64,000 nt of DNA, from the NCBI GenBank assembly GCA_963845085.1, contig CAWJQI010000004.1, positions 672,001-736,000 of the forward strand, written 5' to 3'. Made by a program: the position numbers and the translations under genes. The notes below the pieces were generated by a model, which was given only the letters and a program-made list of their open reading frames with translations, ran no database searches and was not told the DNA's origin. Position 1 is the first letter of the stretch; each line of letters begins with the position of its first letter. This stretch comes from Candidatus Fermentibacterota bacterium (GTDB taxonomy: Bacteria > Fermentibacterota > Fermentibacteria > Fermentibacterales > JCC-6). Of this stretch, positions 11,514 through 54,760 are shown piece after piece.

Positions 11514-12491
11514 CTATCTGATCAGAACGACCGGACGGCACTGGCTTACCCCCTGGGGGGATTCATGCCTGAGGATGTAAAGACCCGGAACTTCCGGCAT
11601 GAAGACTCCGCTGCCGGACCTGACGATCCGCATCGAATCGACAAGCCGGCCGTCCAGTGAGAACAGGCTGACCGTACCGTCGGCCGCTGTAAAGCTTATT
11701 GCGCCCTCGGCGGGCGAGTTGACGATGAAGGCGGAATTCGGGACCGGAGAGCCTTCCTCTTCGATGCCTGTAGTGATGATCTCGGAAAGCTTCACCATGC
11801 GCGAGTTGAGGATTTCATCGGTGGCGTTGCTCTGTACGAAAGTGGTGAGGTAGAGCTCTTCCCAGTCCCAGGAAGGGTTGATCGTGTAATCCGCGCTGAG
11901 TTCAATGGTTTCACCTGAAGACCCGAAATCCACAGCGGTGCCGTTGGCGCCGAACATGTTCCAGCGGAGGGCGTAGTTGAACTCGCTGCCGGTGTAGGTT
12001 CCCGTGCCGGGTATGCCGCACTCGTTGATTATGGCATGGATCGTGGCGTCGGTATCGATCCCGGTGTCGGTGGTCAGAGTGAAGGTGATGGTTCCCTCGG
12101 TTGGATCTGACTCGACCGAAGGGGTAAGAGTGATGTCGAGATGGCACGGAACCGCCATTCTCGTTTCGTAGTAACCGAGCATGGTGGACAGCGGCCATGC
12201 GTCGTAAAGGCCATCCACCATCACGGTCGGGTATGCGGTGATTCCGTAATAGCTCTTCCGTGCCGTGTTGTGGGTGGGATTGGCCTGGTAGACGGGATCC
12301 GTTGCGCTCGAGTTGTGGATCGCCACCAGTGACACGGTTCCTGGATGGCTGTCGAGAAACTGGGTGACAGTGACCTCACTGCCAGGACATGTCCCTCAGC
12401 CGTCCCATGTAAAAAACTCGAGCATTACTGCACGGTCAGCCGCAATGGCAAAAAGCGGCAATGCCAACAGCACGGCAAGGCAGAACTTCAT
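11514..12491 (-). CDS. Omp28-like thioredoxin-fold secreted selenoprotein (Sec32, UxxC) with T9SS-like CTD, 325 aa
   Basis: MKFCLAVLLALPLFAIAADRAVMLEFFTWDG-UGA-GTCPGSEV... is in frame with ORF 11514-12335. Signal peptide, RBS, YYGITAYPTVMVDG motif, and a C-terminal sorting-like domain. Confidence 0.88.
12366..12383 (-). promoter_or_regulatory. Candidate bacterial SECIS hairpin
   Basis: GGCAGUG-AGGU-CACUGUC, a 7-bp stem whose loop lies +20..+23 after the UGA at 12396-12398. Confidence 0.75.
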
Positions 12492-12630: not shown

Positions 12631-13236
12631 ATGAACAACAGGGAGCGAATACTGAAGGTGGCGGAGGACCTTTTCTGCGAGAAGGGCTTCAGCGGCACCT
12701 CGATGAGCGAAATTGCCGAAAAGGCAGGTGTGGCCAAAAGCCTCATATATCATCACTTCGCTTCCAAGCAGGCCCTTTGGTCGGGAATCGTGCAGCGTTT
12801 TCATGAAGAGTCGGGCATCCTTGTGAAACTGAAGGACGCCCTCGCGGGAACCGATCCGGCGCAGATAATCGAAATGGTCAGCGGCCCCGGCGGATTCTTC
12901 GATTTTCTTCGGAACAACCCCCGCCTGGTCAGGCTGTTCTCATGGGTGAACCTGGACCGGGAGTTCGAGCCGGAGTACCCCGATGACATACTCAGGTGCG
13001 AAGTCGTTGAAAGCCTTCGACAGCATCAGGAGGCGGGGTGGATCCGGAAGGACATCGATGCAAGGATCATTCCCGTCGTCCTCCTTTCCGTCATGGTGAA
13101 CTGGTTCAGCTCGAAGTGGACCCTTTCAAAATGGTTCGACTCCGGCCTTTCCGACACTGAGATGGACAAGGCATACCTCAGCGGAGCCATGGAAATCCTT
13201 CTGAAGGGAATCGGCCCCGGTGCGCAACCCAGCTGA
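12631..13236 (+). CDS. TetR/AcrR family transcriptional regulator
   Basis: RERILKVAEDLFCEKGFSGTSMSEIAEKAGVAKSLIYHHFASK helix-turn-helix. Confidence 0.95.
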   Translation: MNNRERILKVAEDLFCEKGFSGTSMSEIAEKAGVAKSLIYHHFASKQALWSGIVQRFHEESGILVKLKDALAGTDPAQIIEMVSGPGGFFDFLRNNPRLVRLFSWVNLDREFEPEYPDDILRCEVVESLRQHQEAGWIRKDIDARIIPVVLLSVMVNWFSSKWTLSKWFDSGLSDTEMDKAYLSGAMEILLKGIGPGAQPS

Positions 13237-14287
13237 CCGCGGTCTGGCTGTTGCAGCCCTCATGCTCCTTCTCGCGTGCGGCAGTGGGGCGGACCGCGCT
13301 GAAAGAATCGTCACGGTTCGCACCGCCGTTCTCGAACACGGGCCGATCTCGTCCACCGTCATGCTGCCGTGCCGTCTGGAGGGCGCTGACGAGGCGGTCA
13401 TTTCCGTGCCGGAACCGGTCATGGTTTCGCGGGTGCTGGTTTCGGAGGGTGATCCCGTGATCGCCGGTGCGGTCATGGTCGAGCTTGAGACAGACATGGC
13501 CCGTTTCTCGGCAGTTTCCGCTGCGGCAGCGCGTGTTGCTGCTGCAACTGCGCTTCATGATTACTCGCTGGCCGGCCTTGAAAGGGCGTCTTCACTCCTC
13601 GATGCCGGAGCGATGTCGGAAAGTGGGCACGAGGCTGCACAGCAGCAGGAGGCTGCATCGGAAGCCGCCCTTCTGGCTGCGCGCTCGGGTTACGAACGGG
13701 CCGCTGCTGACGCCTCCACAGGAATTGTCCGGGCGCCGTTCAGCGGCACCGTCACACGTGTCTGGGCCAGACAGGGCAACCCGGCCTCAGGTGGTCTTGT
13801 GGCGATCTCGGGCGGTCGGACCGTCCAGGCGGAACTGCTTTTCCCGCCCGGAAGGCTGCCCTTTCTGAAAGCAGGCCTGCCGGTCTTTCTGCATGCGTCG
13901 ATATACCCCGGTGAGATCTTCCCCGGTGTCATAACCGAGGTCTCGCCATCGGTCGATCCGCTCTCGGGGCTTGTGGCGGCAAGGGCACAATTCCAGAACG
14001 AAGACCGCAGGCTTGCAGCAGGCCTTTCCGGCATTGCCGAAACAGCGCTCGAAACCTGCGACTCTGCACTGGTCCTTCCCCGGTCTTGCCTTGAGAGGAA
14101 TCCCGACGGAGGCTGGCGGGCGGCTGTCGTTGAAGGCGGGCGGGCTGTTTTCAGGAGCGTTGAGACTGGGCTGCAGAACGGTTTTCGCATGCAGATAACA
14201 TCGGGTTTGTCGGCCGGCGACAGCGTAATCGTCTTCGGCATAAACACGGTGCGCGAGGGCGACAGGGTGAGGGAGGCAGCCCGATGA
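13220..14287 (+). CDS. RND efflux membrane fusion (adaptor) lipoprotein
   Basis: LLAC lipobox, lipoyl-like VSEGDPV and VRAPFSGTV segments, alpha hairpin. Confidence 0.92.
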   Translation: MRNPADRGLAVAALMLLLACGSGADRAERIVTVRTAVLEHGPISSTVMLPCRLEGADEAVISVPEPVMVSRVLVSEGDPVIAGAVMVELETDMARFSAVSAAAARVAAATALHDYSLAGLERASSLLDAGAMSESGHEAAQQQEAASEAALLAARSGYERAAADASTGIVRAPFSGTVTRVWARQGNPASGGLVAISGGRTVQAELLFPPGRLPFLKAGLPVFLHASIYPGEIFPGVITEVSPSVDPLSGLVAARAQFQNEDRRLAAGLSGIAETALETCDSALVLPRSCLERNPDGGWRAAVVEGGRAVFRSVETGLQNGFRMQITSGLSAGDSVIVFGINTVREGDRVREAAR

Positions 14288-17200
14288 GTCTTCCCGGTCT
14301 GGCGGCAAGGCGCAGGATAACATTTCTGATGATCTTTCTGCTCATGGCCGGGGCCGGTCTGTTCGGCCTCTCGCAGATGGGAATCGACTACACGCCGGAG
14401 GTCGACCTTGGCGAGGTAATGGTCGTCACGGTCCTTCCCGGATCAGGCCCGGAGGAGGTTGAGAGCCTCGTCTCGAGGGTGATCGAGGATGCAATTTCAG
14501 GAGTCGAGGGTGTCGAGACGATCGAGTCTGACAGCAGGGCATCCATCAGCACGGTGACCGCGAAACTGACCCTTGGCGCCGACATTGACAGGGTTGAGCA
14601 GGACATCACCGATGCGGTGAACAGGGCCGGTTCACTGCTTCCAACAAGTTCCGTCGATCCGCGGGTGTTCGCCCTGGAGAGCAGCATGAAGCCCCTTGTG
14701 ATAGCAAACTTCTCGAGCGAAGTTTTGAGCTCCCCGGAGCTCAGGCGCCTGCTCGAGGACGAAGTACAGCCTGTGCTCGCAAGGGTGGAGGGCATCTCGA
14801 GCGCGGAGATCTCGGGCGGCGAGCAGAGGCAGATCAACGTCGAGGCCGATCCCGTTCAACTCTGGGAGAGAGGAATCACACTTTCGCAGGTATACGGGGC
14901 CCTGTCCGCGGTGCAGGCCGACCAGCCAGGCGGCGAGATCGACAGCGACGGACTTGTTGTGCCCCTGAGCGTTAGAAGCAGTTTCAACAGCCTCGACCAG
15001 ATCAGGAGGCTGGTCGTGGGGCGGCACGGCGGGGTTCCGGTCCTGCTTGGTGATGTTGCCACAGTCCAGGACGGATTCCTCGAGCAGACCGACATCACAA
15101 CCCTCAACGGCGTCAGTACGGTCCTGCTCGTCTTCAGGAAAAGCTCCGACGCAAACACCGTGAACACCTGCCAGGCATTGAAAGAATCCCTTGACAGGGT
15201 TGCACTTGCCTACGCCGGGCAATTCACCGTCGATGTTGTTTACAGCCAGGACGGGTACATCACTTCGTCGATGAACTCACTGGTGGAAACGGGCATCCAG
15301 GCGATCGCCCTGGCGGCCTTCGTACTCCTGTTGTTCCTTGGTTCTCCGGTGAATGCCGGCATCGTCAGCATCTCGATGCCGCTCAGCTTCATAACCACGT
15401 TCGCGCTGATGCGCCTGTTCGGGGTGAACCTGAACATCATGTCGCTCGCGGGGCTTTCCATCTCCATTGGCATGATCGTGGACAACTCGGTCGTGGTCCT
15501 CGAAAACATCCACAGGCTGCGCCGTGAAGGGGTTGGGACCCTTGAAGCGGCGGAAAAGGGAGCGTCACAGGTTGGAATGGCGGTTACGGCATCTACTCTC
15601 ACCACGGTGGCCGTCTTCATCCCGATGCTTTTCGTCAAGGGCACCACGGGCCAGGTCTTCAGGGACCTGTCCATAACCATCGCAAGTGCATTGTTCATAA
15701 GCCTTTTCGTCAGCATGACGCTGATCCCACTGCTCGCAGGAATGTCGCCCCGACTGGTAAAGGTACACCGTAAGGGGTCCCTGCTGCTCTCGGTTCAGAA
15801 CCGGATCGACGGCCTTGAGGGATTCTATGGAAAAGCTGCCGAATGGTGTCTCGGGCACAGGTTCAAAACCGTTGGTTCGCTTGTCCTTCTCTTCGCGGTC
15901 TCGGTGGTTCTCTCCAGGTCCATACCCGCATCATTCCTTCCCGACATCAGGGAAGGCACGATGAGCATCCTCGCATCGACACCTCCCGGCACGAACCTGC
16001 ACACGACTGACAGCATAGCAGGCGCGCTCGAGAACTCCATTCTGGCCTCAATAGCGGAAGGCGATCTTCGGTACTCAAGAATGACTGTAGGAAGGAGCGG
16101 CGGGCTTGCCGCGGCCTTTGGCTCCGATGCCCCGGGAAGGATAGACCTGAACCTGTACTTCGCCGATGAATCGTCCCTGCAAACCTCAATGGAAGGATAT
16201 GCCGAGACCGTGAGGGGCATACTCGAGGGCTTCCCGGGGCTTTCGTACAGCATCACTTCGGGCCAGCCGATAGGGAACGAGTTCCCGATACAAGTGGCCG
16301 TTTACGGCACCGACCTTGTCGAACTCGCGGAAAAGGGGGCGATCCTCAAGGAAGCGATGGAGGGCATCGGGGGAACCGTCGACCACACCTCTTCGCTGGA
16401 CGGGTGGGTCGACCGTATCGAGTTCGTGCCCGACCCGGCCGTACTGTCACAGCGCGGAACCAGCCCTGCACTTCTGGCCGCAGAGATCACCCTTGGGCTT
16501 CAGGGACTCGATGCATCCACCTACACCGAGGGCGGGACCCGGTACGACATCCATCTCAGCTACCCCTTGCGTGTCACGTCGAACCGCGAGCAGGTCATGG
16601 GGCTTCCCGCAGCAGGCGCTCCCCTTGAAAGCTGGGGCGAGTTCCGCACAAGCCAGGTCCCACAGAGGATCTGGCGAAGGGACAGAAGCAGAAGTGTGCT
16701 CGTTTCATGCAAGATCGACGGGCGGGCGCTTGGGGACGTGGGCGCCGACCTTGCCTCCCTGATGGACACCCTCGATCTGGGCGGAAGTCGTTGGGAGCTT
16801 CTGGGCGATATCCCCGACCAGCGGGAGGCGGCATCGAGCATGTCACTCGCCATCCTGGTGGCCGTAATCCTGGTCTTCATGGTCATGGCAAGCCAGTTCG
16901 AGTCGCTGCTTGAACCCTTCCTTCTGGTCTTCGAGATCCCGATGGCTTTCATCGGGGTGATCCTGATCCACCTGGCGACAGGAACCACCATGGGTCTTAC
17001 ATCGCTGGTGGGCATCCTGATGCTGTCGGGCATCGTGGTGAACAACGGCATTCTGCTCGTCGATTTTGCGAACCAGATAAGACGGGAAACAGGGCTTTCC
17101 CCCGAACAGGCCGTGCTTGAGGCGGGTAAAAAGCGTCTCAGACCCATCCTGATGACCGCCGGAACGACGATACTCGCCCTGGTCCCCCTCTCGATCGGCA

Positions 17201-17352
17201 CCGGCAGCAGTTCCGCGATGTGGTCGCCCATGGCGCTCTCCGTGATAGGAGGAATGATTGTTGCCACACCGCTCACCCTTCTCGTACTTCCGGTTCTCTA
17301 TGTGGCCCTTGACGGATGGCACTCGGGACGAAGGGCGGGCGGTCGTGCATAG
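14284..17352 (+). CDS. RND efflux transporter permease (AcrB/AcrD/AcrF family)
   Basis: 1022 aa; GMIVDNSVVVLENI, GIVVNNGILLVD and RLRPILMT motifs. Confidence 0.96.
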   Translation: MSLPGLAARRRITFLMIFLLMAGAGLFGLSQMGIDYTPEVDLGEVMVVTVLPGSGPEEVESLVSRVIEDAISGVEGVETIESDSRASISTVTAKLTLGADIDRVEQDITDAVNRAGSLLPTSSVDPRVFALESSMKPLVIANFSSEVLSSPELRRLLEDEVQPVLARVEGISSAEISGGEQRQINVEADPVQLWERGITLSQVYGALSAVQADQPGGEIDSDGLVVPLSVRSSFNSLDQIRRLVVGRHGGVPVLLGDVATVQDGFLEQTDITTLNGVSTVLLVFRKSSDANTVNTCQALKESLDRVALAYAGQFTVDVVYSQDGYITSSMNSLVETGIQAIALAAFVLLLFLGSPVNAGIVSISMPLSFITTFALMRLFGVNLNIMSLAGLSISIGMIVDNSVVVLENIHRLRREGVGTLEAAEKGASQVGMAVTASTLTTVAVFIPMLFVKGTTGQVFRDLSITIASALFISLFVSMTLIPLLAGMSPRLVKVHRKGSLLLSVQNRIDGLEGFYGKAAEWCLGHRFKTVGSLVLLFAVSVVLSRSIPASFLPDIREGTMSILASTPPGTNLHTTDSIAGALENSILASIAEGDLRYSRMTVGRSGGLAAAFGSDAPGRIDLNLYFADESSLQTSMEGYAETVRGILEGFPGLSYSITSGQPIGNEFPIQVAVYGTDLVELAEKGAILKEAMEGIGGTVDHTSSLDGWVDRIEFVPDPAVLSQRGTSPALLAAEITLGLQGLDASTYTEGGTRYDIHLSYPLRVTSNREQVMGLPAAGAPLESWGEFRTSQVPQRIWRRDRSRSVLVSCKIDGRALGDVGADLASLMDTLDLGGSRWELLGDIPDQREAASSMSLAILVAVILVFMVMASQFESLLEPFLLVFEIPMAFIGVILIHLATGTTMGLTSLVGILMLSGIVVNNGILLVDFANQIRRETGLSPEQAVLEAGKKRLRPILMTAGTTILALVPLSIGTGSSSAMWSPMALSVIGGMIVATPLTLLVLPVLYVALDGWHSGRRAGGRA

Positions 17353-35003: not shown

Positions 35004-36269
35004 CTAGATATAGCCAAGATCCTGAAGGATCTCATCCACCCTTGCCCTGTCGACGGGCAACGGGTCGTAGAGCGCAGGCGCAGACCAGTAGAGAAGTGCG
35101 GTATTGATCGCAGTCGAATCCGGCTGGACCGGATAAAACCCCTCTGGGCCGGCATCGAGGTCACAGGCCTCCCAGGTGTCGGTTACGGTTTCCCAGACTG
35201 TTTTCCTGCCGTCGTACAGAACCGCCACCGGCCAGAACGGACCTGAGTTGAGGTTGGATGCGATTACCGGCACGGGCGGGTTGCCCGCAAGAAGATCGAC
35301 CCCTTCGACGGGACCGGGCCAGGAAAGCCCGACAAGCGCGGCGAGGGTCGGAACGATGTCCACCTGGCTGACCGGATCGGAATGACGGCCCGGCGCGACC
35401 CCGGGACCGGAGATGACAAGGGGGACCCTGAGCACGGTCTGGTTCAGTGATTTGCCGTGCCAGATGCAGCCTCTCTCCAAGAATTCCTCGCCGTGATCAG
35501 CAACAACAATCACGATGGTGCCTTCCGCAAGACCGATCTCCCTCAGACCCGACAGGAGGCGCCCGAGCTGGTGGTCGACGTTCGCTATATCGCCGTCATA
35601 CAGGTCGATCAAATGGGACCTGAGATCGGGATCAGGCGCTTCCCCGCCTTCTCGGGTGTTCCAGTTGAAGGGAGGCCCCCCGGAACCGAACAGCGTGTCG
35701 AACGGCGCGGGCGGGTCGTAAGGGTCGTGGGCGTCGAAGAGGTGGACCATGACGAAGAACTCTTCGCCCTCCCCGAGTCCCGAAAGCCACGAAAGGCACG
35801 AATCTACCGTGGGGCCGGCATTGCTGAGCCCCAGGTGAGTGCTCTCGAAGCTTTCGTAACCCACATGCCAGCCGAACTCCTCTCCCAGCAGATAGTTGTT
35901 CACGAAGCCCGCCGTCCTGTAACCGGCGCTTTTCAGAACGACAGGAATGGTGGGCATGAGGGGATCAGCCCCCATTACCCTGCCGTCGGAGTAACGTCTT
36001 GCCCCGTGGCTCCTGGGGAGAAGGCCGGTCAGCACGCTTGCGCCTGCCGGGAGGGTCCAGGGAGCCGCAGCCTGGCACGCCGTAAAAGCGGCGCCCGTTC
36101 CCGCAAGACTGTCGAGGAACGGGGTGGTGTTCCTCTCGTACCCGCAGTATCCCACGTGGTCCGCTGCCACCGTATCAAGGATGACGAGGAGCACCGAAGG
36201 CCTGTCCCCGCCGGCGCAGGAAGCCAGCGCCGCCAGAAGAAGCAGGGCGAACGGACTACTCCTGTGCAT
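35004..36269 (-). CDS. Sulfatase-like (alkaline phosphatase superfamily) lipoprotein
   Basis: LASC lipobox; ILDTVAADH, PWTLPAGASVLTG, DAHDPY and ADHGE motifs; C-terminal LQDLGYI. Confidence 0.88.
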   Translation of the reverse strand: MHRSSPFALLLLAALASCAGGDRPSVLLVILDTVAADHVGYCGYERNTTPFLDSLAGTGAAFTACQAAAPWTLPAGASVLTGLLPRSHGARRYSDGRVMGADPLMPTIPVVLKSAGYRTAGFVNNYLLGEEFGWHVGYESFESTHLGLSNAGPTVDSCLSWLSGLGEGEEFFVMVHLFDAHDPYDPPAPFDTLFGSGGPPFNWNTREGGEAPDPDLRSHLIDLYDGDIANVDHQLGRLLSGLREIGLAEGTIVIVVADHGEEFLERGCIWHGKSLNQTVLRVPLVISGPGVAPGRHSDPVSQVDIVPTLAALVGLSWPGPVEGVDLLAGNPPVPVIASNLNSGPFWPVAVLYDGRKTVWETVTDTWEACDLDAGPEGFYPVQPDSTAINTALLYWSAPALYDPLPVDRARVDEILQDLGYI

Positions 36270-39200
36270 CACACTCCAGCTTCGCCTTCTTCGCAAGCTT
36301 CGTGCCGAACACCACGTAAATGCAGGGTTCCACGAGCAGAGTGAGGACGGTTGCTGCGACCATGCCGAAGATCACGGTGACGGCCATGGGTGCCCAAGAC
36401 TCGGCGCCCTCGCCAATCCCCAGCGCAAGGGGCACCATGGCGAGGATCGTGGTGAGTGCCGTCATGAGTATGGGGCGCATCCTTATGCGGGCGGCGTCGG
36501 TCACGGCTTCCTCAATGCTGCGCGCCCCCTTTCGGAGGAGCTGGTTTGCGTAGTCAACGAGAACAATGCCGTTGTTCACAACGATGCCGGCCAGCATGAG
36601 CACTCCGATCAGCGACATGACCGACAGCGGGGTTCCCGTGATAAGCAGACCGAGGACGACGCCGATGATCGACATGGGAACCGTGAAGATGATGATGAAC
36701 GGCTCCAGAAGAGACTCGAACTGGCTCGCCATGACCATGTAGACAAGAAGGGCCGCAACCACGATCGCGATGCCCAGGTAGAGGAAGGTTTCCTGCTGGT
36801 CCTTCATGTCGCCGCCGAACTCAACTCTGAGGTTGTTTACGTTGGCCTCTTCAACAACGCTCCGCACATCGGCGGCCACCTGTCCAAGGCTCCGCCCCGC
36901 AACGTCGCAGTTGATGGTGATCGAGCGCTGCTGGTTGGTGCGCTGGATGCTGGTCGACACCATCCTCTCCATGAAGTTTCCCAGGTTTGAGGCGGGCACT
37001 CCTGCGACCGACAGGTATTCGAGGTCTTCCCGTGAATCCCTGAGGTACTCGGGGTAGTTGACGAGAATGTTGTACTCGTCGCCCTCCTCCCTCAGAACCC
37101 CGGCATTGCTTCCGCGCAGGGCCGTGCTCATCTCGGAGGCAACGAACGACGGGCTGAGCCCGTAAAGGGCAAGGGAGTTCACGTCCGGCCTGAAGGAGAG
37201 TTCGGGCATCATGTCCTCCATTGAGGTACTCACGTCCCTGACACCATCTATCTCGGCGATGGCGTCACGGATCCGTTCCCCTTCCGCGGCGAGCTGATCC
37301 AGATCATCGGAGAACACCTTCACCTCGATCGGGCTGCCGCCCATGAAGTTGCCTCCCGAAATATCGTATGTGAGCCCCGGAACCTCGTCGAGGACGGCCC
37401 TGATCCTCTCCTCGTATTCCTCCTGGGTGAGGCTTCTCTCGTTCACGGGGATCATCCGGAACATCATTTCGCCGGACCAGCTTCCCGATGAACCCCCGAA
37501 GACAGCCCCGATCCCATCCTCCTGGCCCACCTGCGCGTACCAGGTGATGAGGTCGCCCTCCGCGAACAGTTTTGGAAGGGTGTCTTCAAGCGCCCTTATC
37601 ATCGCATCGGTTTCATCGAGGCCCGTTCCGATGGGAGCAGTGAGGTCGATGCTGATGAATCCGTTGTCGTTCTCGGGGATGAACTCGGTCTTGAGCAGGG
37701 GGGACAGGGCAAGGCATACCACAAGCAGCCCCAGTGTCGAAAGGATGACGACCTTCCTCTTCTGGACCATCTTTACAGCCAGCCTGTGGTAGGCTTCCTC
37801 GCGGTCGTTGTACCACTTTTCAACACGCTCCCCGAGGCTGCCCTCCTTGTGCTTGGGCACAAGCCGGGCGGCAAAGGAGCTGAGCAGGGGGACCAGACTG
37901 AGGGCGACGAAGAGGGAAACGATCAGGCTGAAGACGATGGTGAGCACCATCTCCTTGAACATCTGGCCGGCGAGCCCCGGAACGAAAAGAATGGGCACGA
38001 AAACGGCCAGGGTGGTCAGGGTAGATGCCGTGATGGCCATCCCGACCTCCTGGGAACCGAGCACCGAGGCCGCACATGCGCTCTCCCCGAAGGTCCTGTG
38101 ACGGTAGATGCTCTCGAACACGACGATCGAGTTGTCGACCAGCATCCCCACCGCCAGTGCGAGCCCCGCGAGGGAGATCATGTTCAGGTCGACGTTGGAA
38201 AAATGCATGACCGCGAAGGTTGCAATTATTGACACGGGGATGGCCGCCCCGGTGATCAGCGAACCCCTGGCCGACCGAAGAAAGAACAGGAGCACAAGAA
38301 AGGTCAGGATGGACGCCTGAACCGCCGTGTTGGCGAGGTTCGAGATGGACTGCTGTATGAAGTCGGACTGGTCCCACATTATGTAGGGAACCACCTGCCC
38401 CGCATACTCGGCTTCGATCAGTTCGAGTTCCGCCCGTATCCCGTTGCAGACGTTTACCGTGTTGGCGTCGCTTCTTCTCTGAACGATTCCGAAAAGGGAC
38501 GGCTGGCCGTCCATTCTGATGTGCTGGGAAATCTCGGCCTCACCATCGATGATGTCCGCCACGTCGCGGAGGAGCACCGGCCCGTGCATGCCTCCACCGA
38601 CAACGAGCTGTTCGAGTTCCGGGACCCCGGAAATACTTGACTCAACGCGGATGCTCATGCTGAGCCCGCCCGTTTCAAGATCCCCGGCCGGCATGTCGTT
38701 CCTGACCTGGGCAATTGCGCCGGTCACCTGTGCAAGGGTGACTCCCGCGGCTGCAAGCCGTGCGGGATCGACTTCGACCTTGATCTCCCTGACCAGTCCG
38801 CCAAGCGTGCTCACCGAACCAACCCCGGGCTGCCTTGTCAGCCTGGGCTCGACCTCGTTCTCCAAAAGCTGCCTGAGGGCGAAATCATCGAGCAGGGGGC
38901 TGGAAAAACCAATGAACATGATGGGCTGAAGGCTGGGATCGAGGGCCAGCACAAGCGGATCGGAAGCATCCTCGGGAAGAAGGTCCTCGTACATGTCGAG
39001 CTGCCTTCGGATGTCGGTTTCCGCCTGGTCGAGGTCGTGCCCCCACTCGAATTCAGCCATGACCACGCTGATGCCGTTCGATGACGAGGATGTGATCTTT
39101 TTTACGCTCGCCACCCTGGATGCCGCTTCCTCGAGGGTGCTCGTAACCAGGTTCTCCATTTCCTCGGGGCCTGCCCCGGTCATGGAGCTCATTATGACGA

Positions 39201-39333
39201 TCATCGGGAACTGGACCTTCGGGTAAAGGTCGATGCCAAGCTGCGTCAGCCCGAAAAATCCGATTCCGAGCACGAAGATGAACACCATCAGAAAGGTTAT
39301 GCGCCGGCGGACCGATACACCTGAAAGGCTCAT
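36256..39333 (-). CDS. RND efflux transporter permease
   Basis: 1025 aa; GMLVDNSIVVFESI, GIVVNNGIVLVD and RMRPILMT motifs; resembles 14284-17352. Confidence 0.96.
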   Translation of the reverse strand: MSLSGVSVRRRITFLMVFIFVLGIGFFGLTQLGIDLYPKVQFPMIVIMSSMTGAGPEEMENLVTSTLEEAASRVASVKKITSSSSNGISVVMAEFEWGHDLDQAETDIRRQLDMYEDLLPEDASDPLVLALDPSLQPIMFIGFSSPLLDDFALRQLLENEVEPRLTRQPGVGSVSTLGGLVREIKVEVDPARLAAAGVTLAQVTGAIAQVRNDMPAGDLETGGLSMSIRVESSISGVPELEQLVVGGGMHGPVLLRDVADIIDGEAEISQHIRMDGQPSLFGIVQRRSDANTVNVCNGIRAELELIEAEYAGQVVPYIMWDQSDFIQQSISNLANTAVQASILTFLVLLFFLRSARGSLITGAAIPVSIIATFAVMHFSNVDLNMISLAGLALAVGMLVDNSIVVFESIYRHRTFGESACAASVLGSQEVGMAITASTLTTLAVFVPILFVPGLAGQMFKEMVLTIVFSLIVSLFVALSLVPLLSSFAARLVPKHKEGSLGERVEKWYNDREEAYHRLAVKMVQKRKVVILSTLGLLVVCLALSPLLKTEFIPENDNGFISIDLTAPIGTGLDETDAMIRALEDTLPKLFAEGDLITWYAQVGQEDGIGAVFGGSSGSWSGEMMFRMIPVNERSLTQEEYEERIRAVLDEVPGLTYDISGGNFMGGSPIEVKVFSDDLDQLAAEGERIRDAIAEIDGVRDVSTSMEDMMPELSFRPDVNSLALYGLSPSFVASEMSTALRGSNAGVLREEGDEYNILVNYPEYLRDSREDLEYLSVAGVPASNLGNFMERMVSTSIQRTNQQRSITINCDVAGRSLGQVAADVRSVVEEANVNNLRVEFGGDMKDQQETFLYLGIAIVVAALLVYMVMASQFESLLEPFIIIFTVPMSIIGVVLGLLITGTPLSVMSLIGVLMLAGIVVNNGIVLVDYANQLLRKGARSIEEAVTDAARIRMRPILMTALTTILAMVPLALGIGEGAESWAPMAVTVIFGMVAATVLTLLVEPCIYVVFGTKLAKKAKLECDAQE

Positions 39334-40400
39334 TATTCCACCACTTCCACGGGGCTTCCGTCAATGATGCTGTTCTGGCCCATCACGATGACGCTGTCGC
39401 CCGCGGCGATCCCCGACACTATTTCAACCATCCCGTGGCTTCTGATCCCGAGTGTCACTTCCCTGAGTTCCGCCCTTCCATCCTTCACCACGGCGAGTTG
39501 AAACCCCGTCCGGGTGCGGCGGAGCACGTTTTCAGAGTAGATGATGGCGTTCTCGGAAGTGCGCGTGACGATCGCCACCCTGCCGCTGAGCCCCGGTCTG
39601 AGCACACCCTCGGCGTCGTCGAACCTCACTTCGACAGATACAAGGCCGCTGAGCGGGTCCACGGAGGATGACACGGCGGTGACCACGCCCGGTACGGACA
39701 TGTTGTCGAGCGCACCGACCGTCACATATGCGGGTTGACCCTCGGCAAGGTTGAAGATGTCACGCTCCGGAAGGAGAACCCTCGCGAGAACGCCTCCGTT
39801 CCCCGTGATGGAAAGAAGCGGAGTGGCTCCTGTGGCACTGTTTCCGGCCCTGGCCCAGACCCTTCCGATCCTGCCGGAAAAAGGTGCGGCTATCCAGGCG
39901 TTGTCCCTGGCACTCCTGGCCTGCGTGTAGCCGGCCTGCGCCTGGGTCATCTGGGCTCTTGCCGCCTCGAGCCCTGTCCTTGCTGCGTCGATGTCCTGCG
40001 CACTCACCGCTCCGGCGTCGTACAGCGCCTCCAGCCTCTCGAAATTGGACTGGGCGTTTTCGTGGTTCGCCCTGGCGGCGCTGAGGGCCGCAAGTGCTGC
40101 GGAAGAGCCGGCTCCCGCCTGCTGGTCGGTGTCCATCTTCACAAGCCGCTGGCCGGCCTCGACATAGTCGCCTTCGGAGATTAAAAGCTCTTCCACACGC
40201 CCCGGCATGGAGGGGTAGATCAACGCCTCCTCGGCTCCTTCGAGCCTCGCACTTGCATACGATTCGGTGGAAATGCTTCCGGCCGTTGCGGTCTCGACCC
40301 TGATCCTCACAACCCGTTCAGCCGTCTCGTCGCCCTGGGGACCGCAGGCGGCCAGAAGCGTCAACATGGAGATGCAGCCCAAAGCAAGTGTCTTTTTCAT
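39333..40400 (-). CDS. RND adaptor (MFP) lipoprotein
   Basis: LAAC lipobox; ISEGDYV and IAAPFSGRI segments. Confidence 0.93.
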   Translation of the reverse strand: MKKTLALGCISMLTLLAACGPQGDETAERVVRIRVETATAGSISTESYASARLEGAEEALIYPSMPGRVEELLISEGDYVEAGQRLVKMDTDQQAGAGSSAALAALSAARANHENAQSNFERLEALYDAGAVSAQDIDAARTGLEAARAQMTQAQAGYTQARSARDNAWIAAPFSGRIGRVWARAGNSATGATPLLSITGNGGVLARVLLPERDIFNLAEGQPAYVTVGALDNMSVPGVVTAVSSSVDPLSGLVSVEVRFDDAEGVLRPGLSGRVAIVTRTSENAIIYSENVLRRTRTGFQLAVVKDGRAELREVTLGIRSHGMVEIVSGIAAGDSVIVMGQNSIIDGSPVEVVE

Positions 40401-40402
40401 TC

Positions 40403-41707
40403 CTACTCTTCTCCGCCAATGGCAAGAATGCCCATGGCAGCCGCAAGCCCGGCCTCGGCGGATTTCATTCCGTACAGGGCCGATGCGTAGTTCGTTCTGG
40501 CCTGTGTGTGTGCCAGGAATGCCTGGTCCATTTCCAGCCGGGTAATCAGCCCGGCTTCATATGAGACAACCGCAATATCCAGGGCTTCGCCGGCCAGTTC
40601 CACGGTTGCCGAGGCCGCGCCGACCGTCTCCCTTGCCTCGGCAAGCCCGTTCCAGGCCTGCACCAGCGCCAGCTCGGAGTATCTTTCAAGGTCTGCGGCC
40701 TGTGAATGCATGGCCATGCGATCCGATCTGGCTCCCCTGTAGCTCGCGTAGTCGGATATCCCCCGCACCACGGGGATCGAAACAGAGATGGAATGGGTGA
40801 GGTTTCTGCTGTAGATGGTGCGGTCGATGTCTTCGATCTCGTCAGCGCCGCCCTGGTACATCAGGGAAGTCTGGAAGGCGACCGTCGGACCGAACGCCGC
40901 AGTCGCATGCCTGACTCCCGCGTCACCGAGTTCGCGCAGGGTGCCGGCGGTTGCCAGCTCGGGGCTGTTCGCAAGCATGACGGTCCGTGCCTCTTCAAGG
41001 GAAGCGGGGAGGGTGACCGGAAACGGGTCGGTCAGCTCGCCCTCAACAACGATCGCTGCATCACAGCCGGTTCCGATGGATGCGGAAAGGTATGCACAGG
41101 CGTTCTCCAGACCGGAGGCCGCAGCTATCGAGTCGGGCTTCCTGTTTTCGTAGGCCACCTGGTTCTGGAGCAGCTCGAACCTGCTTATCGTGCCGGCGTT
41201 ATACCTTTCCTCGGCAAGCCTGTAGCCTTCCCTGGCGACTTCAAGGGCTTCGGTGGAAACGTCCAGCAGCATCTCGGAGAGAAGGACCCCGTAAAAGGCC
41301 GAAACAACCTGCCGGACCGCCCCGATTTCCGTCGAGGCAAGCGTGCTCTCCGACAGGTCCCGGTTGATGCCCGAAAGCGATGATCCCGAGATGGCCTGCG
41401 GTACGAACAGCGGCACGGAAGCGGTGATCCCGTACTGGCTCTGGTATGTAGTGCCGGTGCTGATCTCGCCGACTCCGGGGATGGTGATTCCGGCAACATC
41501 CTCATTCTTCTGGTACACGAGCATCGCGCTCACCTGGGGAAGGAACCACGTTGAGGCGGCCCTGCTGCTCCATCGTGAGCTTTCCAGGGTTTCCCTGGCG
41601 GCGGAGACGTCTCCACGGTTTGCAAGCGCGATTTCCACCGCTTCGGGCAGTGTGAGGGCCAGGACCGGGCCGGACAGGCCCAGAAGGATCAAGGCTGTTC
41701 TAATCAT
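40403..41707 (-). CDS. TolC family outer membrane efflux protein
   Basis: LTLPEAVEIAL plus two OEP repeats (RYNAGTISRFEL; SYEAGLITRLEM). Confidence 0.92.
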   Translation of the reverse strand: MIRTALILLGLSGPVLALTLPEAVEIALANRGDVSAARETLESSRWSSRAASTWFLPQVSAMLVYQKNEDVAGITIPGVGEISTGTTYQSQYGITASVPLFVPQAISGSSLSGINRDLSESTLASTEIGAVRQVVSAFYGVLLSEMLLDVSTEALEVAREGYRLAEERYNAGTISRFELLQNQVAYENRKPDSIAAASGLENACAYLSASIGTGCDAAIVVEGELTDPFPVTLPASLEEARTVMLANSPELATAGTLRELGDAGVRHATAAFGPTVAFQTSLMYQGGADEIEDIDRTIYSRNLTHSISVSIPVVRGISDYASYRGARSDRMAMHSQAADLERYSELALVQAWNGLAEARETVGAASATVELAGEALDIAVVSYEAGLITRLEMDQAFLAHTQARTNYASALYGMKSAEAGLAAAMGILAIGGEE

Positions 41708-42305
41708 TCTCTCTGTCACCCTTTTCGCATTTTATGCCATTGAAGACCATGTCCGTAACTTCTTCAACAAGCCGTTCCATCAGCCTGTCGTTCGAGGTGT
41801 CGACATGCTGTTTCTCAAGGGCGCCCTCGATCACCGAGGCCAGCACAGCAAGCACCAGGCCGGGCTTGATGTCGGGCCTTATCTCACCCTTTTGCACAGC
41901 CCTGTCGAAAACCGGCTGAAAGACTTCCTGGAAAAACCTCTTGCCCGACACCTCCATGTCCGACAGCCTCCAGCTCTCCTGCAGGAGGTTGTCCCATGCC
42001 TCGGCATACCTTGTGTTCTCGCGCTGGAGCCTCAGGCGGGTCAGCATGAACTTTCTCAGCGCCTCACGAACGGTGATGTCGGGCGGGAACACCCCCCTGA
42101 AGGTTTCCCTTGCGATGTCGAACATGTGGTCAACGAGAGCGGTATAGAACCCGCTCTTGCTGCCGAAGTAATAGTATACCATTGGTTTGGTGACACCGCC
42201 GAGGGCGGCCACCTCTTCCATTTTGATATCGGTGAACCTTTTTCTGGAGAGGAGCTCGACTCCGGAGTCAAGAAGCTTCTCGCGGTTCCCCAATGGATCT
42301 GCCAT
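41700..42305 (-). CDS. TetR/AcrR family regulator
   Basis: EEVAALGGVTKPMVYYYFGSK helix-turn-helix. Confidence 0.93.
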   Translation of the reverse strand: MADPLGNREKLLDSGVELLSRKRFTDIKMEEVAALGGVTKPMVYYYFGSKSGFYTALVDHMFDIARETFRGVFPPDITVREALRKFMLTRLRLQRENTRYAEAWDNLLQESWRLSDMEVSGKRFFQEVFQPVFDRAVQKGEIRPDIKPGLVLAVLASVIEGALEKQHVDTSNDRLMERLVEEVTDMVFNGIKCEKGDREND

Positions 42306-46176: not shown

Positions 46177-46410
46177 CTAGAAGCCGTTCGTACTGGTCTT
46201 CTCCGGCGGTTCGACAGGGATCCGCTCGCGCGAGGGGTACACCACTTCCTCCAGCGTGGCCCCGGCGGGCAGACCGAACGCGGCCAGGGGAATCACGGCA
46301 AATGCTGGAACCCCCCCGATCCTGCCGGATACCACACATTGAGGCGTACCGGACGATTCGGCACGCTGTCTTGCTTTCTCCAGGGCAGATGTTCTTTCGT
46401 AAAGGATCAT
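46177..46410 (-). CDS. Small hypothetical protein (77 aa) upstream of fhs
   Basis: GGAGG RBS; ends 14 nt before the fhs start. Confidence 0.65.
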   Translation of the reverse strand: MILYERTSALEKARQRAESSGTPQCVVSGRIGGVPAFAVIPLAAFGLPAGATLEEVVYPSRERIPVEPPEKTSTNGF

Positions 46411-46467
46411 GCCGCCTCCCTGATCATATCATGGGCATGAACAGGCAAACGGGCAAGAAAGGGTTGC

Positions 46468-46602
46468 ATGAAGAAGACCGCGGTTCTGCTTCTGGTCCTT
46501 CTGCTTCTTTCCGCAGGATGCATTCCGGGGGATGGCGGGGGTTGAGGCGCGCTTCGGGCTTCAAGGGTTCTTGAGCCGGAAACGACGGAAACCACGGAGT
46601 AG
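46468..46602 (+). CDS. Candidate mini-selenolipoprotein (44 aa; 25 aa if UGA is a stop)
   Basis: MKKTAVLLLVLLLLSAG-C-IPGDGGG-UGA-GALRASRVLEPETTETTE-TAG. Clear lipoprotein signal; SECIS-like hairpin after the UGA. Confidence 0.65.
46553..46581 (+). promoter_or_regulatory. Candidate bacterial SECIS hairpin
   Basis: UUC-G-GGC-(bulged U)-UCAAG-GGUU-CUUGA-GCC-G-GAA; loop +21..+24 after the UGA at 46543-46545. Confidence 0.6.
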
Positions 46603-46609
46603 GTTTGTG

Positions 46610-46634
46610 GGAGGGAGGGTGAGCCCCTCCCTCC
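46610..46634. terminator. Hairpin between convergent genes
   Basis: GGAGGGAGGG-TGAGC-CCCTCCCTCC. Confidence 0.65.
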
Positions 46635-46645
46635 GCAGGCCTTTC

Positions 46646-47137
46646 TCAGCGCATCCCCGGGCAGGGTGGTGCCATGTCCCCCCCCGGGGGAACCATGAAA
46701 TGGTCCCGCTCTCCAGGCCTTCGTCCATGTTCCTCGACCATTTGCGTAAGCTCGTCGAGCTGGTCTGCTGTGAGCAGCGAATGGACCTCATCGAGCGCTG
46801 TCGACACGACTGAGTGCACCCTGCCCATCCTCTCAAGCCGCCCGTCCAGAAGCTCCATAAGCCCCGTCCCGCTGAATTCCGCAGAGCAGAAGTACTCCAT
46901 GAACCCCATTTGCTCATCGTCAGCGCTTTCGATCTCGAGCAGCCTGACCCCGGCATCCTCCATTATTCGGTGGATCCCGCTTCTCTGGGCATCGGACAGT
47001 TCGAGCCTCATCACTGCATGAATAAGCCCGTCCATTACCGGATGCCCGTGACCCTGCCCGAAACCGGGGGGCTGTGCCGATGCCCCGGAGGCAGCCAGCA
47101 GTACCGCTGCCGATGCCATCCACAGTGTTCCTTTCAC
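46646..47137 (-). CDS. Spy/CpxP-like periplasmic protein
   Basis: Signal peptide; LELSDAQ and LLTADQ (LTXXQ) motifs; His/Met-rich. Confidence 0.8.
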   Translation of the reverse strand: MKGTLWMASAAVLLAASGASAQPPGFGQGHGHPVMDGLIHAVMRLELSDAQRSGIHRIMEDAGVRLLEIESADDEQMGFMEYFCSAEFSGTGLMELLDGRLERMGRVHSVVSTALDEVHSLLTADQLDELTQMVEEHGRRPGERDHFMVPPGGDMAPPCPGMR

Positions 47138-47430
47138 AAAATCTCCTTTCATTCGACTGGCGCACTGGGAACATGGGGTCATGGTCATGCCGTCATGTTG
47201 CATCGATGTAACGGAATGTAACAGCCCGACTTTCCCCGAATTGCCGCATTCAGGGCCTTTTCTTATGGTACGGGGCGCAGCCGCTGAACAGGAGCAACCC
47301 CGGCGGGAAGGTTCGGATTGAGCACCGGAATCTTGTGGAAGGCATTCGCCGGGCTGTTCCCGCTTGAGGATTGCCTGTTCCCTGGTACTGGAGTTGTCTC
47401 AGGCACCCCGTTCGAAAGCGAAATTGATTG

Positions 47431-51924: not shown

Positions 51925-52019
51925 TTCCCGACCCCGGCTTCCTGTAGCACAGTGCCATGGAGCCCGGGGCGACAGGGTTGTACGGGAAACTGTACAGCCT
52001 CCCGTGTTTGGAAAGGGAA
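51925..52019 (+). ncRNA. Moco RNA motif riboswitch, P3-less (tungsten cofactor, Tuco) variant
   Basis: P1 TTCCC/GGGAA; P2 CCCCGG...CCGGGG; P4 AGGGTTGTACGG-GAAA-CTGTACAGCCT; conserved CCTCCCGTGTTTGGAAAGG; lies upstream of tupA. Confidence 0.88.
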
Positions 52020-52114
52020 AGGACGCCGCATTTGCATCACCCCGTACCGGGGGTGGCGTGTATTCCCCTCCAATTAGTGAGCCTGCGGTCGGGTTCATAA
52101 CCAGAAGGAGGGAT

Positions 52115-53017
52115 ATGTTTTCGAAGCTGAGGTTGATCAGCCTGGCGCTGAGTCTGGCATTTCTTCTCACGGGGTGCGGAGAACAACCCGCACCGGTCAC
52201 CACCCCTGCAGATTCCACTGCGGTTACGGAAGAGCCTGTTGGGTATCCCCCGCGCGAACGGGTTGAAAGGCTTCTCATCGCAACCACGACAAGCCTGTAC
52301 GACACCGGGCTCTGGGCCTACATGGAGCCGATGTTCGAAGAGATGTACAACGTCGAGCTCGACATTCTCTATGCCGGAACGGGCAAAGCCCTGGAGTGGG
52401 GCATGAGGGGCGACGTTGATGTGATAGTCGTGCACGACCGCGCCCGCGAGGACCAGTTCATCGCAGACGGTTACGGTGTTTCCCGCACACCGTTCGCGTA
52501 CAACTTCTTCGTCATCGTCGGTCCCCCGGATGATCCCGCCGGCATCCGTGACATGGCGCCCGAGGCCGCCCTTGCCCTGCTCAGCACGAACATGACCACC
52601 CCCTTCATCTCGAGGGGCGACGAATCGGGCACGCACGCACAGGAACAGCGCCTCTGGGCTGCCGCCGGTCTTGATTATGAAACCGTGCGCACTTCCGGCG
52701 AGTGGTATGTCGAGGCTGCCGCGGGCATGGGCCCCACACTCAACATGGCCAACGAGATGAGGGCTTACGCCCTTGCCGACATCGCCACATTCCTCGCCTA
52801 CCAGGGTGACGTCGACCTCGAGATACTCATCGGCGAAGGCGACGTCATGCGCAATGTCTACGCGGTCATCCCTCTCAATACCGCAAGAAACCCGGAGATG
52901 GCCCAGAACATGGTCACCTTCCTGACATCCCCGGAGACCCAGGAACTCATCGGCACCTACGGCGTTGAGGCCTGGGGCAGGCAGCTCTTCACCCCCTGCG
53001 CGGGCGAAGACCTGTAG
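52115..53017 (+). CDS. tupA: Tungstate ABC transporter substrate-binding lipoprotein
   Basis: LTGC lipobox; ATTTSLYDTGL (TTTS signature), GTGKAL and SRGDESGTH motifs. Confidence 0.93.
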   Translation: MFSKLRLISLALSLAFLLTGCGEQPAPVTTPADSTAVTEEPVGYPPRERVERLLIATTTSLYDTGLWAYMEPMFEEMYNVELDILYAGTGKALEWGMRGDVDVIVVHDRAREDQFIADGYGVSRTPFAYNFFVIVGPPDDPAGIRDMAPEAALALLSTNMTTPFISRGDESGTHAQEQRLWAAAGLDYETVRTSGEWYVEAAAGMGPTLNMANEMRAYALADIATFLAYQGDVDLEILIGEGDVMRNVYAVIPLNTARNPEMAQNMVTFLTSPETQELIGTYGVEAWGRQLFTPCAGEDL

Positions 53018-53021
53018 TCCG

Positions 53022-53714
53022 ATGGACAAGCTGGCGGAAGCATTTGTCATCGCCCTGAAGATGATCGCGACCGGAGACCCTCTGGTCATGGAGATCACCT
53101 TCCGGACCCTGGCGATCTCCGCCAGCGCCACCATCATCGCCTGCATCCTCTTCACCCCGCTGGGATGCTTCCTCCACTTTGCTCGCTTTCCCGGCAGGGG
53201 GTTCCTGATCGGTTTCATACAGGCCCTCTACAGCATGCCGACCGTCTTTGCAGGCCTGATAATTTTCCTGTTCCTTTCGAGAACCGGCCCTCTCGGAGGG
53301 CTCAGGCTTCTGTTCACACCGCGTGCCATAGTAATCGCCGAGGTCTTTCTCGTCGCGCCCGTAATTCTCGGTCTTGTCATATCGGCGTTGAAGGGCGTCG
53401 CGGGTGAGGCGGCCGACACCGTGCGGGCTCTGGGCGCGAGCCCGATCCAGACCGCCCGGGTGGTTCTTGTCGAAGCGAGGTTCGCAATCCTCTCCGCTTT
53501 TCTCATGGGCTTCGGAAGGGCCATTTCGGAGGTCGGAGCCGCCATGATGGTGGGCGGAAACATAGCGGGCAGGACCCGGACCCTCACCACCGCCATCTCA
53601 CTGGGCATCGGGAAAGGCGAAGTGGCCGAATCGATAGCTCTCGGAATCATTCTGATGACCCTGGCTCTTCTTGTAAGCCTGCTCGTCCACCTGGCCGGAA
53701 TGAGAAAGACATGA
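53022..53714 (+). CDS. tupB: Tungstate ABC transporter permease
   Basis: LSRTGPLG..LLFTP and GFGRAISEVGAAMMVGGNIAGRTRTLTTAI motifs. Confidence 0.93.
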   Translation: MDKLAEAFVIALKMIATGDPLVMEITFRTLAISASATIIACILFTPLGCFLHFARFPGRGFLIGFIQALYSMPTVFAGLIIFLFLSRTGPLGGLRLLFTPRAIVIAEVFLVAPVILGLVISALKGVAGEAADTVRALGASPIQTARVVLVEARFAILSAFLMGFGRAISEVGAAMMVGGNIAGRTRTLTTAISLGIGKGEVAESIALGIILMTLALLVSLLVHLAGMRKT

Positions 53715-54760
53715 GGATCGACCTGCAGGGCATCACGAAGACGGTTGGATCGAAGCGCATCCTTTCCGATCTTTCGTTCCGGGTCGATCAGGGGGATTTC
53801 TGCACCCTGATCGGACCTACCGGATGCGGCAAGACAACACTTCTTCGAATTGCGGAGCTGTTGGACAGACCCACGTCCGGAAGGGTTCTCATTGACGGTG
53901 AGGACTGCACCCGCTGTCATGGCCGTTCCCGGACGATGATGAGACGAAGGATGTCCATGGTCATGCAGCGCCCCTTCATGCTCACGGGAACGCTCGAACG
54001 GAACATTCGGTTCGGCCCTGGCGTAAGGGGAATTCCGGTAAGTGCTGCCGAGATCGGTGAGGTCCTCGATGCCACAGGACTTTCGGGAATGGGGCACCGG
54101 AATGCCCGAACCCTCTCCGGAGGGGAAATGCAGAAGGCGGCCATTGCCAGGGCCGTGATAACGAAGCCCGAACTCCTTCTGCTCGATGAACCCCTCAATT
54201 CCGTGGATCAGGGATTCAAGCCGGAGCTCAGGGCGCTTATCAGAAGGCTTCACAGGGAGATGGGAATGACGGTGCTCATGGCAACCCACGATCTTGCCGA
54301 TGCGCTTGCCCTTTCAAACCGCACAGTGGTTCTTTCGGAAGGCGCGCTCATGCAGGAGGGGGAGACCTCCGCAGTCTTCGGAAACCCTGCAAGCCTTTTT
54401 GTCGCCTCGTTCATCGGAATGAAGAACATCATCCCGGTGGAGTTCAACGGCGACAGCGCAAAGGCCGGCGAACTGGTGATCTTCCTTGCGGAGAGGGGCT
54501 CAGGCACAGGGTATGTCTGCATTCCCCCCGAGGTCATCACCCTGTCCCCTGAAAAACCTGACTCAAGCCAGAGGAATACTTTCACGGCTTCCGTGACCGA
54601 CATTGAGAGAAGCTCAATGTACGACACGATCCATCTTCTGGCTGGCGGCATACCCCTTCAATCCACGATCACGCGCCAGTCAACCGGGCACCTCGGGCTG
54701 CACGCAGGCTCTGCAGTCTGGGTTTCCTTCAAGGCCACCTCGGTCAAAATACTGGCCTGA
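53711..54760 (+). CDS. tupC: Tungstate ABC transporter ATPase with TOBE domain
   Basis: GPTGCGKTT, LSGGE and LLDEP motifs; C-terminal ITRQS..LGL..FKA TOBE domain. Confidence 0.88.
   Translation: MRIDLQGITKTVGSKRILSDLSFRVDQGDFCTLIGPTGCGKTTLLRIAELLDRPTSGRVLIDGEDCTRCHGRSRTMMRRRMSMVMQRPFMLTGTLERNIRFGPGVRGIPVSAAEIGEVLDATGLSGMGHRNARTLSGGEMQKAAIARAVITKPELLLLDEPLNSVDQGFKPELRALIRRLHREMGMTVLMATHDLADALALSNRTVVLSEGALMQEGETSAVFGNPASLFVASFIGMKNIIPVEFNGDSAKAGELVIFLAERGSGTGYVCIPPEVITLSPEKPDSSQRNTFTASVTDIERSSMYDTIHLLAGGIPLQSTITRQSTGHLGLHAGSAVWVSFKATSVKILA

Follow-up and report, generated by a model that had tools for sequence, protein, structure and literature searches.

A 44-codon gene missed by annotation in Candidatus Fermentibacterota very likely encodes a membrane-anchored selenocysteine peptide of 27 residues

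The window analyzed here, the whole stretch of 64,000 nucleotides, holds a small open reading frame that sits between two opposite-strand genes and is apparently monocistronic (Table 1). The initial annotation, made from the sequence alone, had proposed a signal peptide II, a UGA and readthrough to a TAG, and translation with TGA as selenocysteine (Sec, U) gave exactly that product. The -10-like hexamer upstream of it may act as a promoter; a consensus promoter scan of the region returned 0 sites. The mini-gene does diverge from the fhs operon as described, but the divergent unit begins with ORF77, not with fhs itself. ORF77 homologues are present in other genera too. The terminator-like hairpin placed 7 nt past the stop was found there and is strong (z -4.1; 0/200 shuffles as stable), but it has no U-run and was not called in a terminator scan. 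This GC-rich hairpin also occurs at loci without the mini-gene.

Table 1 Features of the mini-gene locus (positions in the window).
Feature	Position	Strand	Remarks
Readthrough ORF, 44 codons	46468..46602	+	ATG 46468, TAG 46600-46602
-10-like hexamer TATCAT	46427..46432	+	From allele alignment; TATAAT at the same place in 4/7 alleles
Purine-rich ribosome-binding-like stretch GGGCAAGAAAG	46451..46461	+	In 7/7 alleles
Signal peptide II, 17 codons: basic N-terminus, Leu-rich core, lipobox	46468..46518	+	
Lipobox Cys18, predicted lipid attachment, sole Cys	46519..46521	+	Invariant in 7/7 alleles
In-frame TGA, codon 26 (mature residue 9), predicted to be read as Sec	46543..46545	+	Context G-G-G-U-G
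SECIS-type hairpin within the coding region	46555..46579	+	Loop GGTT at 46566-46569
Post-UGA codons (18) and TAG stop	46546..46602	+	Core G-x-x-R-A-x-x-V-L-x-P-E-T, then E/T-rich tail
GC-rich hairpin between mini-gene and convergent gene	46610..46634	.	
Divergent neighbor ORF77: conserved 77-aa ORF, no known family	46177..46410	-	Directly upstream of fhs
Convergent neighbor: exported Spy/CpxP/ZraP-like protein	46646..47203	-	Weak matches, all under cut-off

In RNA data, one run held 9% of the words, and one identical 170-nt contig from an RNA record covers 46352-46521; this contig ends before the UGA, is strandless and possibly DNA, and was not counted as evidence. No RNA record crossing the UGA of the mini-gene was found. 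Elsewhere in the window lie two paralogous operons for TetR, membrane-fusion and RND efflux proteins (12631-17352, +, and 36256-42305, -), the second of which includes an outer-membrane factor (all names read from translations), and what is presumably a tungstate-type, TupABC-like ABC transporter operon (52004-54760, -).

The Ca. Fermentibacteraceae (Hyd24-12) are described in passages of PMC5030696 as anaerobic, diderm fermenters and proposed reducers of S0 or polysulfide. The presence of the Sec machinery, which the initial annotation had left to be checked, was confirmed in the genome (88% complete): selA, selB and selD matched above cut-off, together with tRNA-Sec (selC), and selD itself carries an in-frame TGA. 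SelD has an N-terminal Cys-rich extension before its Sec motif (L004, G000 C5:740477-741835). Across the phylum, selA was matched in 64 of 70 genomes. For lipoprotein maturation, lgt and lspA are present; lnt (TIGR00546) was not found in the 88%-complete genome.

Besides the mini-peptide, at least 10 putative exported selenoproteins are encoded in the genome, four of them thioredoxin-fold Omp28-like proteins. The four Omp28-like U-x-x-C genes lie at 11517-12491 (-) of the window and at G000 C4:51844, C5:499622 and C5:786648; one is divergent from lgt, and for the two that were scanned the NF045500 match was far under cut-off. An exported family of ~200 aa carries P-x-C-x-x-U, with the SECIS inside RYQVVV, and had no Pfam or NCBIfam match (0/6). 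It has eight matches in the genome, including G000 C4:762479-763733 (+), C5:710722-711989 (-), C5:144976-145617 (+) and C5:289023-289562 (-) (L101-L104), and is present in 47/47 genomes searched; most of the matches listed have one in-frame TGA. A long exported repeat protein (L108, G000 C4:525662-527875, -) also has one in-frame TGA without a SECIS-type loop and could be a pseudogene, a point error or an atypical Sec gene.

Orthologues of the mini-gene were sought with a profile search of 70 phylum genomes, to which pattern scans of genomes and metagenomes were added. The profile search found the ORF in 5/8 genomes of the source genus (g1, Ca. Fermentibacteraceae). A DNA-pattern scan of metagenomes gave two further alleles on four contigs, with one of its five matches due to chance, and four of the five matches from the genome collection were true. 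None of 555 candidate stretches was confirmed in a related-locus search of metagenomes, and none of 38 pattern matches in viral contigs had a signal peptide. All seven alleles are syntenic, and the stop position is kept within three codons.

The UGA is conserved as TGA in 7/7 alleles, whereas the final stop varies (six TAG, one TGA). TGA is the commonest stop in the genome (651/996, 65%), so its conservation alone says little. The coding-type conservation expected after a readthrough codon was found, as the reading continues in frame in the orthologues. Uncorrected pairwise pN/pS over the seven alleles was 0.22 for the mature part before the UGA and, after it, 0.24 (codons +1..+13), 0.28 (+1..+18) and 0.36 (+14..+18), compared with 0.96 past the true stop, 1.06-2.8 in the two other sense frames over the post-UGA stretches, and 0.35 for fhs and 0.25 for ORF77. 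By this comparison, the post-UGA codons are under protein-level purifying selection as strong as that on the neighboring genes. Change biased to third positions outlasts the hairpin and runs through all 18 codons that follow the UGA, and an Arg after the UGA is retained through CGG, AGG and CGA codons. A frameshift in the adjacent G runs that would join a longer ORF is refuted by the alleles, all seven of which keep the frame with differing synonymous Gly codons. An antisense ORF as the source of the conservation was also rejected: the wobble-sharing frame is a shadow, because it is broken by TGA in 2/7 alleles and scores 0.47-0.54. As four of the seven alleles are close kin in the Fhs tree, they do not amount to seven independent trials.

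The mini-gene is dispensable, since it is missing at an intact locus in two congeners that carry selA. At one such locus, in G003, the upstream elements and the hairpin are kept with nothing between them. The two non-carriers form a clade (96/99) in an Fhs tree of 20 chosen rows; depending on where the genus root lies, either gain or loss would fit. G007 is uninformative on presence because it also lacks matches for fhs and ORF77.

The hairpin with a bulged U and a GGUU loop described after the UGA was reproduced on folding, with the loop at +21..+24, and the Omp28-like gene of the window does share this register, with GGT at +21. The fold has -15.6 kcal/mol for 37 nt, a stability reached by 7/200 shuffles and modest when taken alone. 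All seven alleles have the loop GGT at +21..+23, and the G at +21 is fixed despite its codon being AGG, CGG, GGG or GCG (Arg, Gly or Ala). Across alleles, 78.8% of the stem is paired, with two compensated pairs (12/500 shuffles; slid controls ≤48.5%), which gives modest covariation support. A strict hairpin test was passed by the mini-gene, by 9/11 other putative selenoprotein genes of the genome and by 10/651 ordinary TGA stops, a test tuned on the same genes it passes and from which a twelfth TGA gene without a hairpin had been dropped beforehand. The genome has 94 lipobox-like starts, of which 15 reach a stop in 40 codons or fewer; the mini-gene alone among them passes, which points to more than chance. 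The loop also lies at +21 in 36/43 UGA sites of the phylum's large exported CxxU selenoprotein family, and +21 is the register of most other selenoprotein genes in the genome. The hairpin satisfies the consensus of Zhang and Gladyshev as restated in a passage of PMC13188914: a loop of 3-9 nt starting with G, GG or GU, a spacing of 20 nt (16-37 allowed) and an MFE below -7.5.

A second group of mini-lipoproteins was entered through a weak match of the signal peptide (E 0.03). Iteration of the profile converged on 9/19 genomes of genus g8 and 5/8 of g1, with an E gap from 1.6e-11 to 4.5e-4, and the remaining 43 phylum genomes searched gave no member. The nine g8 members share a lipobox, a Pro at +3 and a TGA located 7-11 codons past the Cys. 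Each also has a hairpin whose GT lies at +24/+25, the register used by selD in the source genome, and a stop 15-30 codons later. U-x-x-C is present in 6/9 members and a C-terminal Cys in 5/9, and five share G-U-G-A with the window ORF. In the first five members the hairpin is 95% paired, with three compensated pairs (0/500 shuffles), which is strong covariation. Post-UGA pN/pS is only 0.63 in this group, versus 1.63 and 0.94 in the other frames. In g8 the UGA occupies the catalytic site of a redox motif, which gives independent support for Sec.

Comparison of the window family with the g8 group by hhalign gave 93.6% over 30 columns, signal included, and a mature-only profile beat shuffles for five of the nine members (2-14 of 300), not for the other four. 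From these alignments, common descent of the two groups appears probable. Convergence is the less probable alternative. The sequences diverge after U+2, the loci differ, and no neighbor is common to both groups or hints at function. The same design recurs whichever origin, descent or convergence, applies. In five g8 genomes (L202-L206) a divergent gene for an exported protein of ~140-160 aa stands beside the mini-gene; a homologue of it at G000 C5:232303-232629 has no mini-gene beside it.

That no known family could be assigned was borne out by the NCBIfam, Pfam and protein database searches. For either group, NCBIfam and Pfam gave signal-peptide matches only. PF08139 (LPAM_1) reached 18.3 bits (cut-off 20) on one mini-gene allele and did not match the window's own allele; among seven sequences scanned against Pfam it was above cut-off on one, a second-group member (20.8 bits). 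The lipobox signal pattern was found in all 16 sequences of the two groups. Searches of 1.84 billion protein representatives returned P0006 plus one chance repeat protein, and those of a 5.8-billion protein set P0006 only, with nothing for the second group. P0006 is a database copy of one allele, cut at the UGA and listed as a 37-aa hypothetical protein. A PDB sequence search gave three chance matches (E 0.95-2.6). In an AlphaFold prediction (pLDDT 63, pTM 0.32), only the signal peptide is confidently helical and the mature part has a pLDDT of ~50, consistent with a mature 27-residue chain that is largely unstructured and has no fold.

A Cys substitution at the UGA position, which the initial annotation had suggested looking for in relatives, did not turn up with certainty: all 16 sequences have TGA. 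The best candidates for Cys relatives are exported proteins of ~143 aa in four genus-g2 genomes (L237/L250 in G025, L251, L252 and L253). They join a Gly-rich N-terminus to an Ig-like C-terminal domain and have no Pfam match; three of the four start with C-P-(G-rich)-C-G-S-C, one having His for Cys. They are possibly metal-binding proteins and Cys relatives of the mini-gene; the similarity, for candidates picked by the same profile, is borderline against shuffles (1-40 of 300). An origin from the exported P-x-C-x-x-U ... RYQV (CxxU) family was rejected, with a hhalign probability of 7.9% and no allele beating shuffles. The Sec/Cys pair is the usual discovery criterion for selenoproteins according to passages of PMC12013277, and without a Cys form the mini-gene would be dropped by tools such as the deep-Sep presented there.

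The mini-gene shares with bacterial selenoprotein genes that have a coding-region SECIS its in-frame UGA, the consensus loop, spacing and MFE, and selA/B/C/D; it differs from them in having no folded domain and no sure Cys homologue. No sequence match was found to the 119 families as Table 1 of a 2026 review gives them (PMC13188914). The selenobacteriocin TIGR04081 (SGUG motif, same table) is alike in being a short peptide with Sec in a Gly-flanked G-U-G, but the mini-gene has a lipoprotein signal, not a RiPP leader, and one Sec. SaoX and SaoC are lipoproteins with Sec in some members, as stated in part of 10.1101/2022.07.06.499078; they are folded or ~158 aa long, belong to a nine-gene operon and have many Cys homologues, in contrast to this stand-alone 27-residue peptide. 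LptM (NF047847) and entericidin A (NF007319) resemble the mini-gene in size, signal peptide II, a short lipid-proximal functional stretch and a disordered tail, but they have no Sec and a different motif. Their matches (E 0.1 and 0.013, well below cut-off) are confined to the signal peptide, and the family HMM including the mature motif is not above cut-off. VhuU is very small and encoded in its enzyme's operon. It is a Sec-bearing subunit of the F420-non-reducing [NiFeSe] hydrogenase in the account excerpted from PMC2933860, and shares U-x-x-C with the second group, but it is archaeal, cytoplasmic and without a lipid anchor, and it has no sequence match to the mini-gene.

Taken together, the 44-codon gene that annotation overlooked very probably specifies a 27-residue selenocysteine peptide anchored in the membrane. 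The gene, its signal, UGA, hairpin and post-UGA selection, and the machinery of its host, are established to the extent that sequence comparison allows; from the same evidence, Sec readthrough at the UGA is highly probable, and lipidation of Cys18 would be expected with similar confidence. SelB would read the hairpin and Sec would be inserted at the UGA; the precursor would be exported, lipidated at Cys18 by Lgt and cleaved by LspA, leaving the anchored peptide with one Sec on a Gly-rich arm, eight residues from the lipid. Since the mini-peptide has no free Cys, Sec must react with something else. At the membrane, the exposed selenol may attack soft electrophiles (disulfides, polysulfide/S0, peroxide) or be oxidized by them; alternatively, it may bind soft metals. 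Being flanked by Gly and unhindered, the tethered Sec would suit such a mobile role. A partner would recycle it, the exported Omp28-like thioredoxin-fold and CxxU selenoproteins of the same genome being the obvious candidates. The second group would have kept a resolving Cys (U-x-x-C); in the window group its loss would call for an external Cys or a Se-Se dimer. That a lipid-tethered, unstructured selenol acts as an envelope redox or soft-metal ligand is the most likely reading, at about even odds, and the proposed chemistry and partner could equally be right or wrong. Another sulfur reducer has a Sec-dependent polysulfide reductase, as an excerpt of PMC13510729 reports, which makes sulfur chemistry plausible but shows nothing for the mini-peptide.

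Other readings account for part of these observations. The UGA could be a stop that leaves an 8-residue lipopeptide, with the downstream pattern due to RNA structure or an antisense frame; TGA is the major stop, gene callers end the protein there (P0006), and a similar hairpin occurs at some true TGA stops. This is very improbable given the third-position bias that outlasts the hairpin, the Arg kept through different codons, the broken antisense frame and an independent group that repeats signal, UGA, hairpin and U-x-x-C. Improbable as well, if slightly less so, is that the gene is the decaying remainder of a longer exported Cys/Sec protein or encodes a selenobacteriocin-like RiPP precursor. 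The mature peptide does resemble the g2 proteins, three of which have the C-P-(G-rich)-C-G-S-C start, and G003 has a hairpin-flanked locus without ORF. Selection nevertheless equals that on the neighbors, the stop is kept, and the g2 similarity is borderline as noted; no longer homologue was found among 8000 scored candidate proteins (weak evidence), neither the TIGR04081 precursor model nor its radical SAM partner TIGR04082 was above cut-off, and no modifying enzyme is adjacent. A ribosome-arrest reading of the R-A-G of the mini-peptide, which we take to resemble known arrest motifs, was rejected, the chain being too short and no co-directional gene following.

The minimal size, the missing fold, the apparently monocistronic layout and the many other putative exported selenoproteins would also suit a selenium store or sink, or a gauge of selenium through the ratio of full-length to UGA-truncated product. 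We regard this as improbable: one Sec per export event makes a poor store, the U-x-x-C of the second group indicates chemistry, and there is no downstream co-directional gene to regulate. Rather unlikely, though less remote, is a detached catalytic or ligand subunit that docks into an envelope protein or complex and provides Sec in trans as VhuU does, or a short post-lipid motif that acts as LptM does on LptD. The non-Sec residues that never vary (P, G-G-G, R-A, V-L, P-E-T) resemble a binding motif; LptM requires only nine residues from the lipidated Cys onward, in the portion of 10.1101/2025.01.03.631273 on this point. Against it, some of the conservation can be put down to the overlap of R-A..V-L-x-P with the SECIS stem, the two groups have different sequences after U+2, no partner gene is co-located, and presence is patchy among genomes whose envelope complexes should be shared.

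The words 'lipoprotein' and 'Fermentibacter' have 0 occurrences in the text of the review PMC13188914 and are absent from the BSepDB and deep-Sep (PMC12013277) main texts, whose supplements, or the BSepDB database, could hold an entry. We found no literature on Fermentibacter and selenocysteine, and none on such peptides. Our verdict is a new family and a new minimal architecture, Sec-bearing lipoproteins as such being already known (SaoX, SaoC). Its significance is limited by the narrow distribution and the inferred function.

The mini-gene and its relatives, spread over two genera of this uncultured anaerobic phylum, suggest a kind of selenoprotein without a folded domain. Tentatively, Fermentibacterota may have a class of such domain-less selenoproteins, ribosomally made lipopeptides of 23-30 residues that expose one Sec at the membrane and work as diffusible, cofactor-like redox or sulfur/metal carriers and serve the phylum's large exported selenoproteome, possibly in handling polysulfide/S0. 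As these genes go unseen by gene callers and by Sec/Cys-pair searches, the class may be widespread; the need of tools for a Cys homologue, set out in passages of PMC12013277, and the truncation or skipping of such ORFs by callers mean that catalogues of selenoproteomes and of small proteins have a blind spot here. Chemical synthesis is feasible for a chain of this length, so the action of a bare membrane-tethered selenol is directly testable. If the reading is true, the peptide would be among the smallest selenoproteins, its whole mature chain consisting of a lipid anchor, a Gly arm and one Sec.
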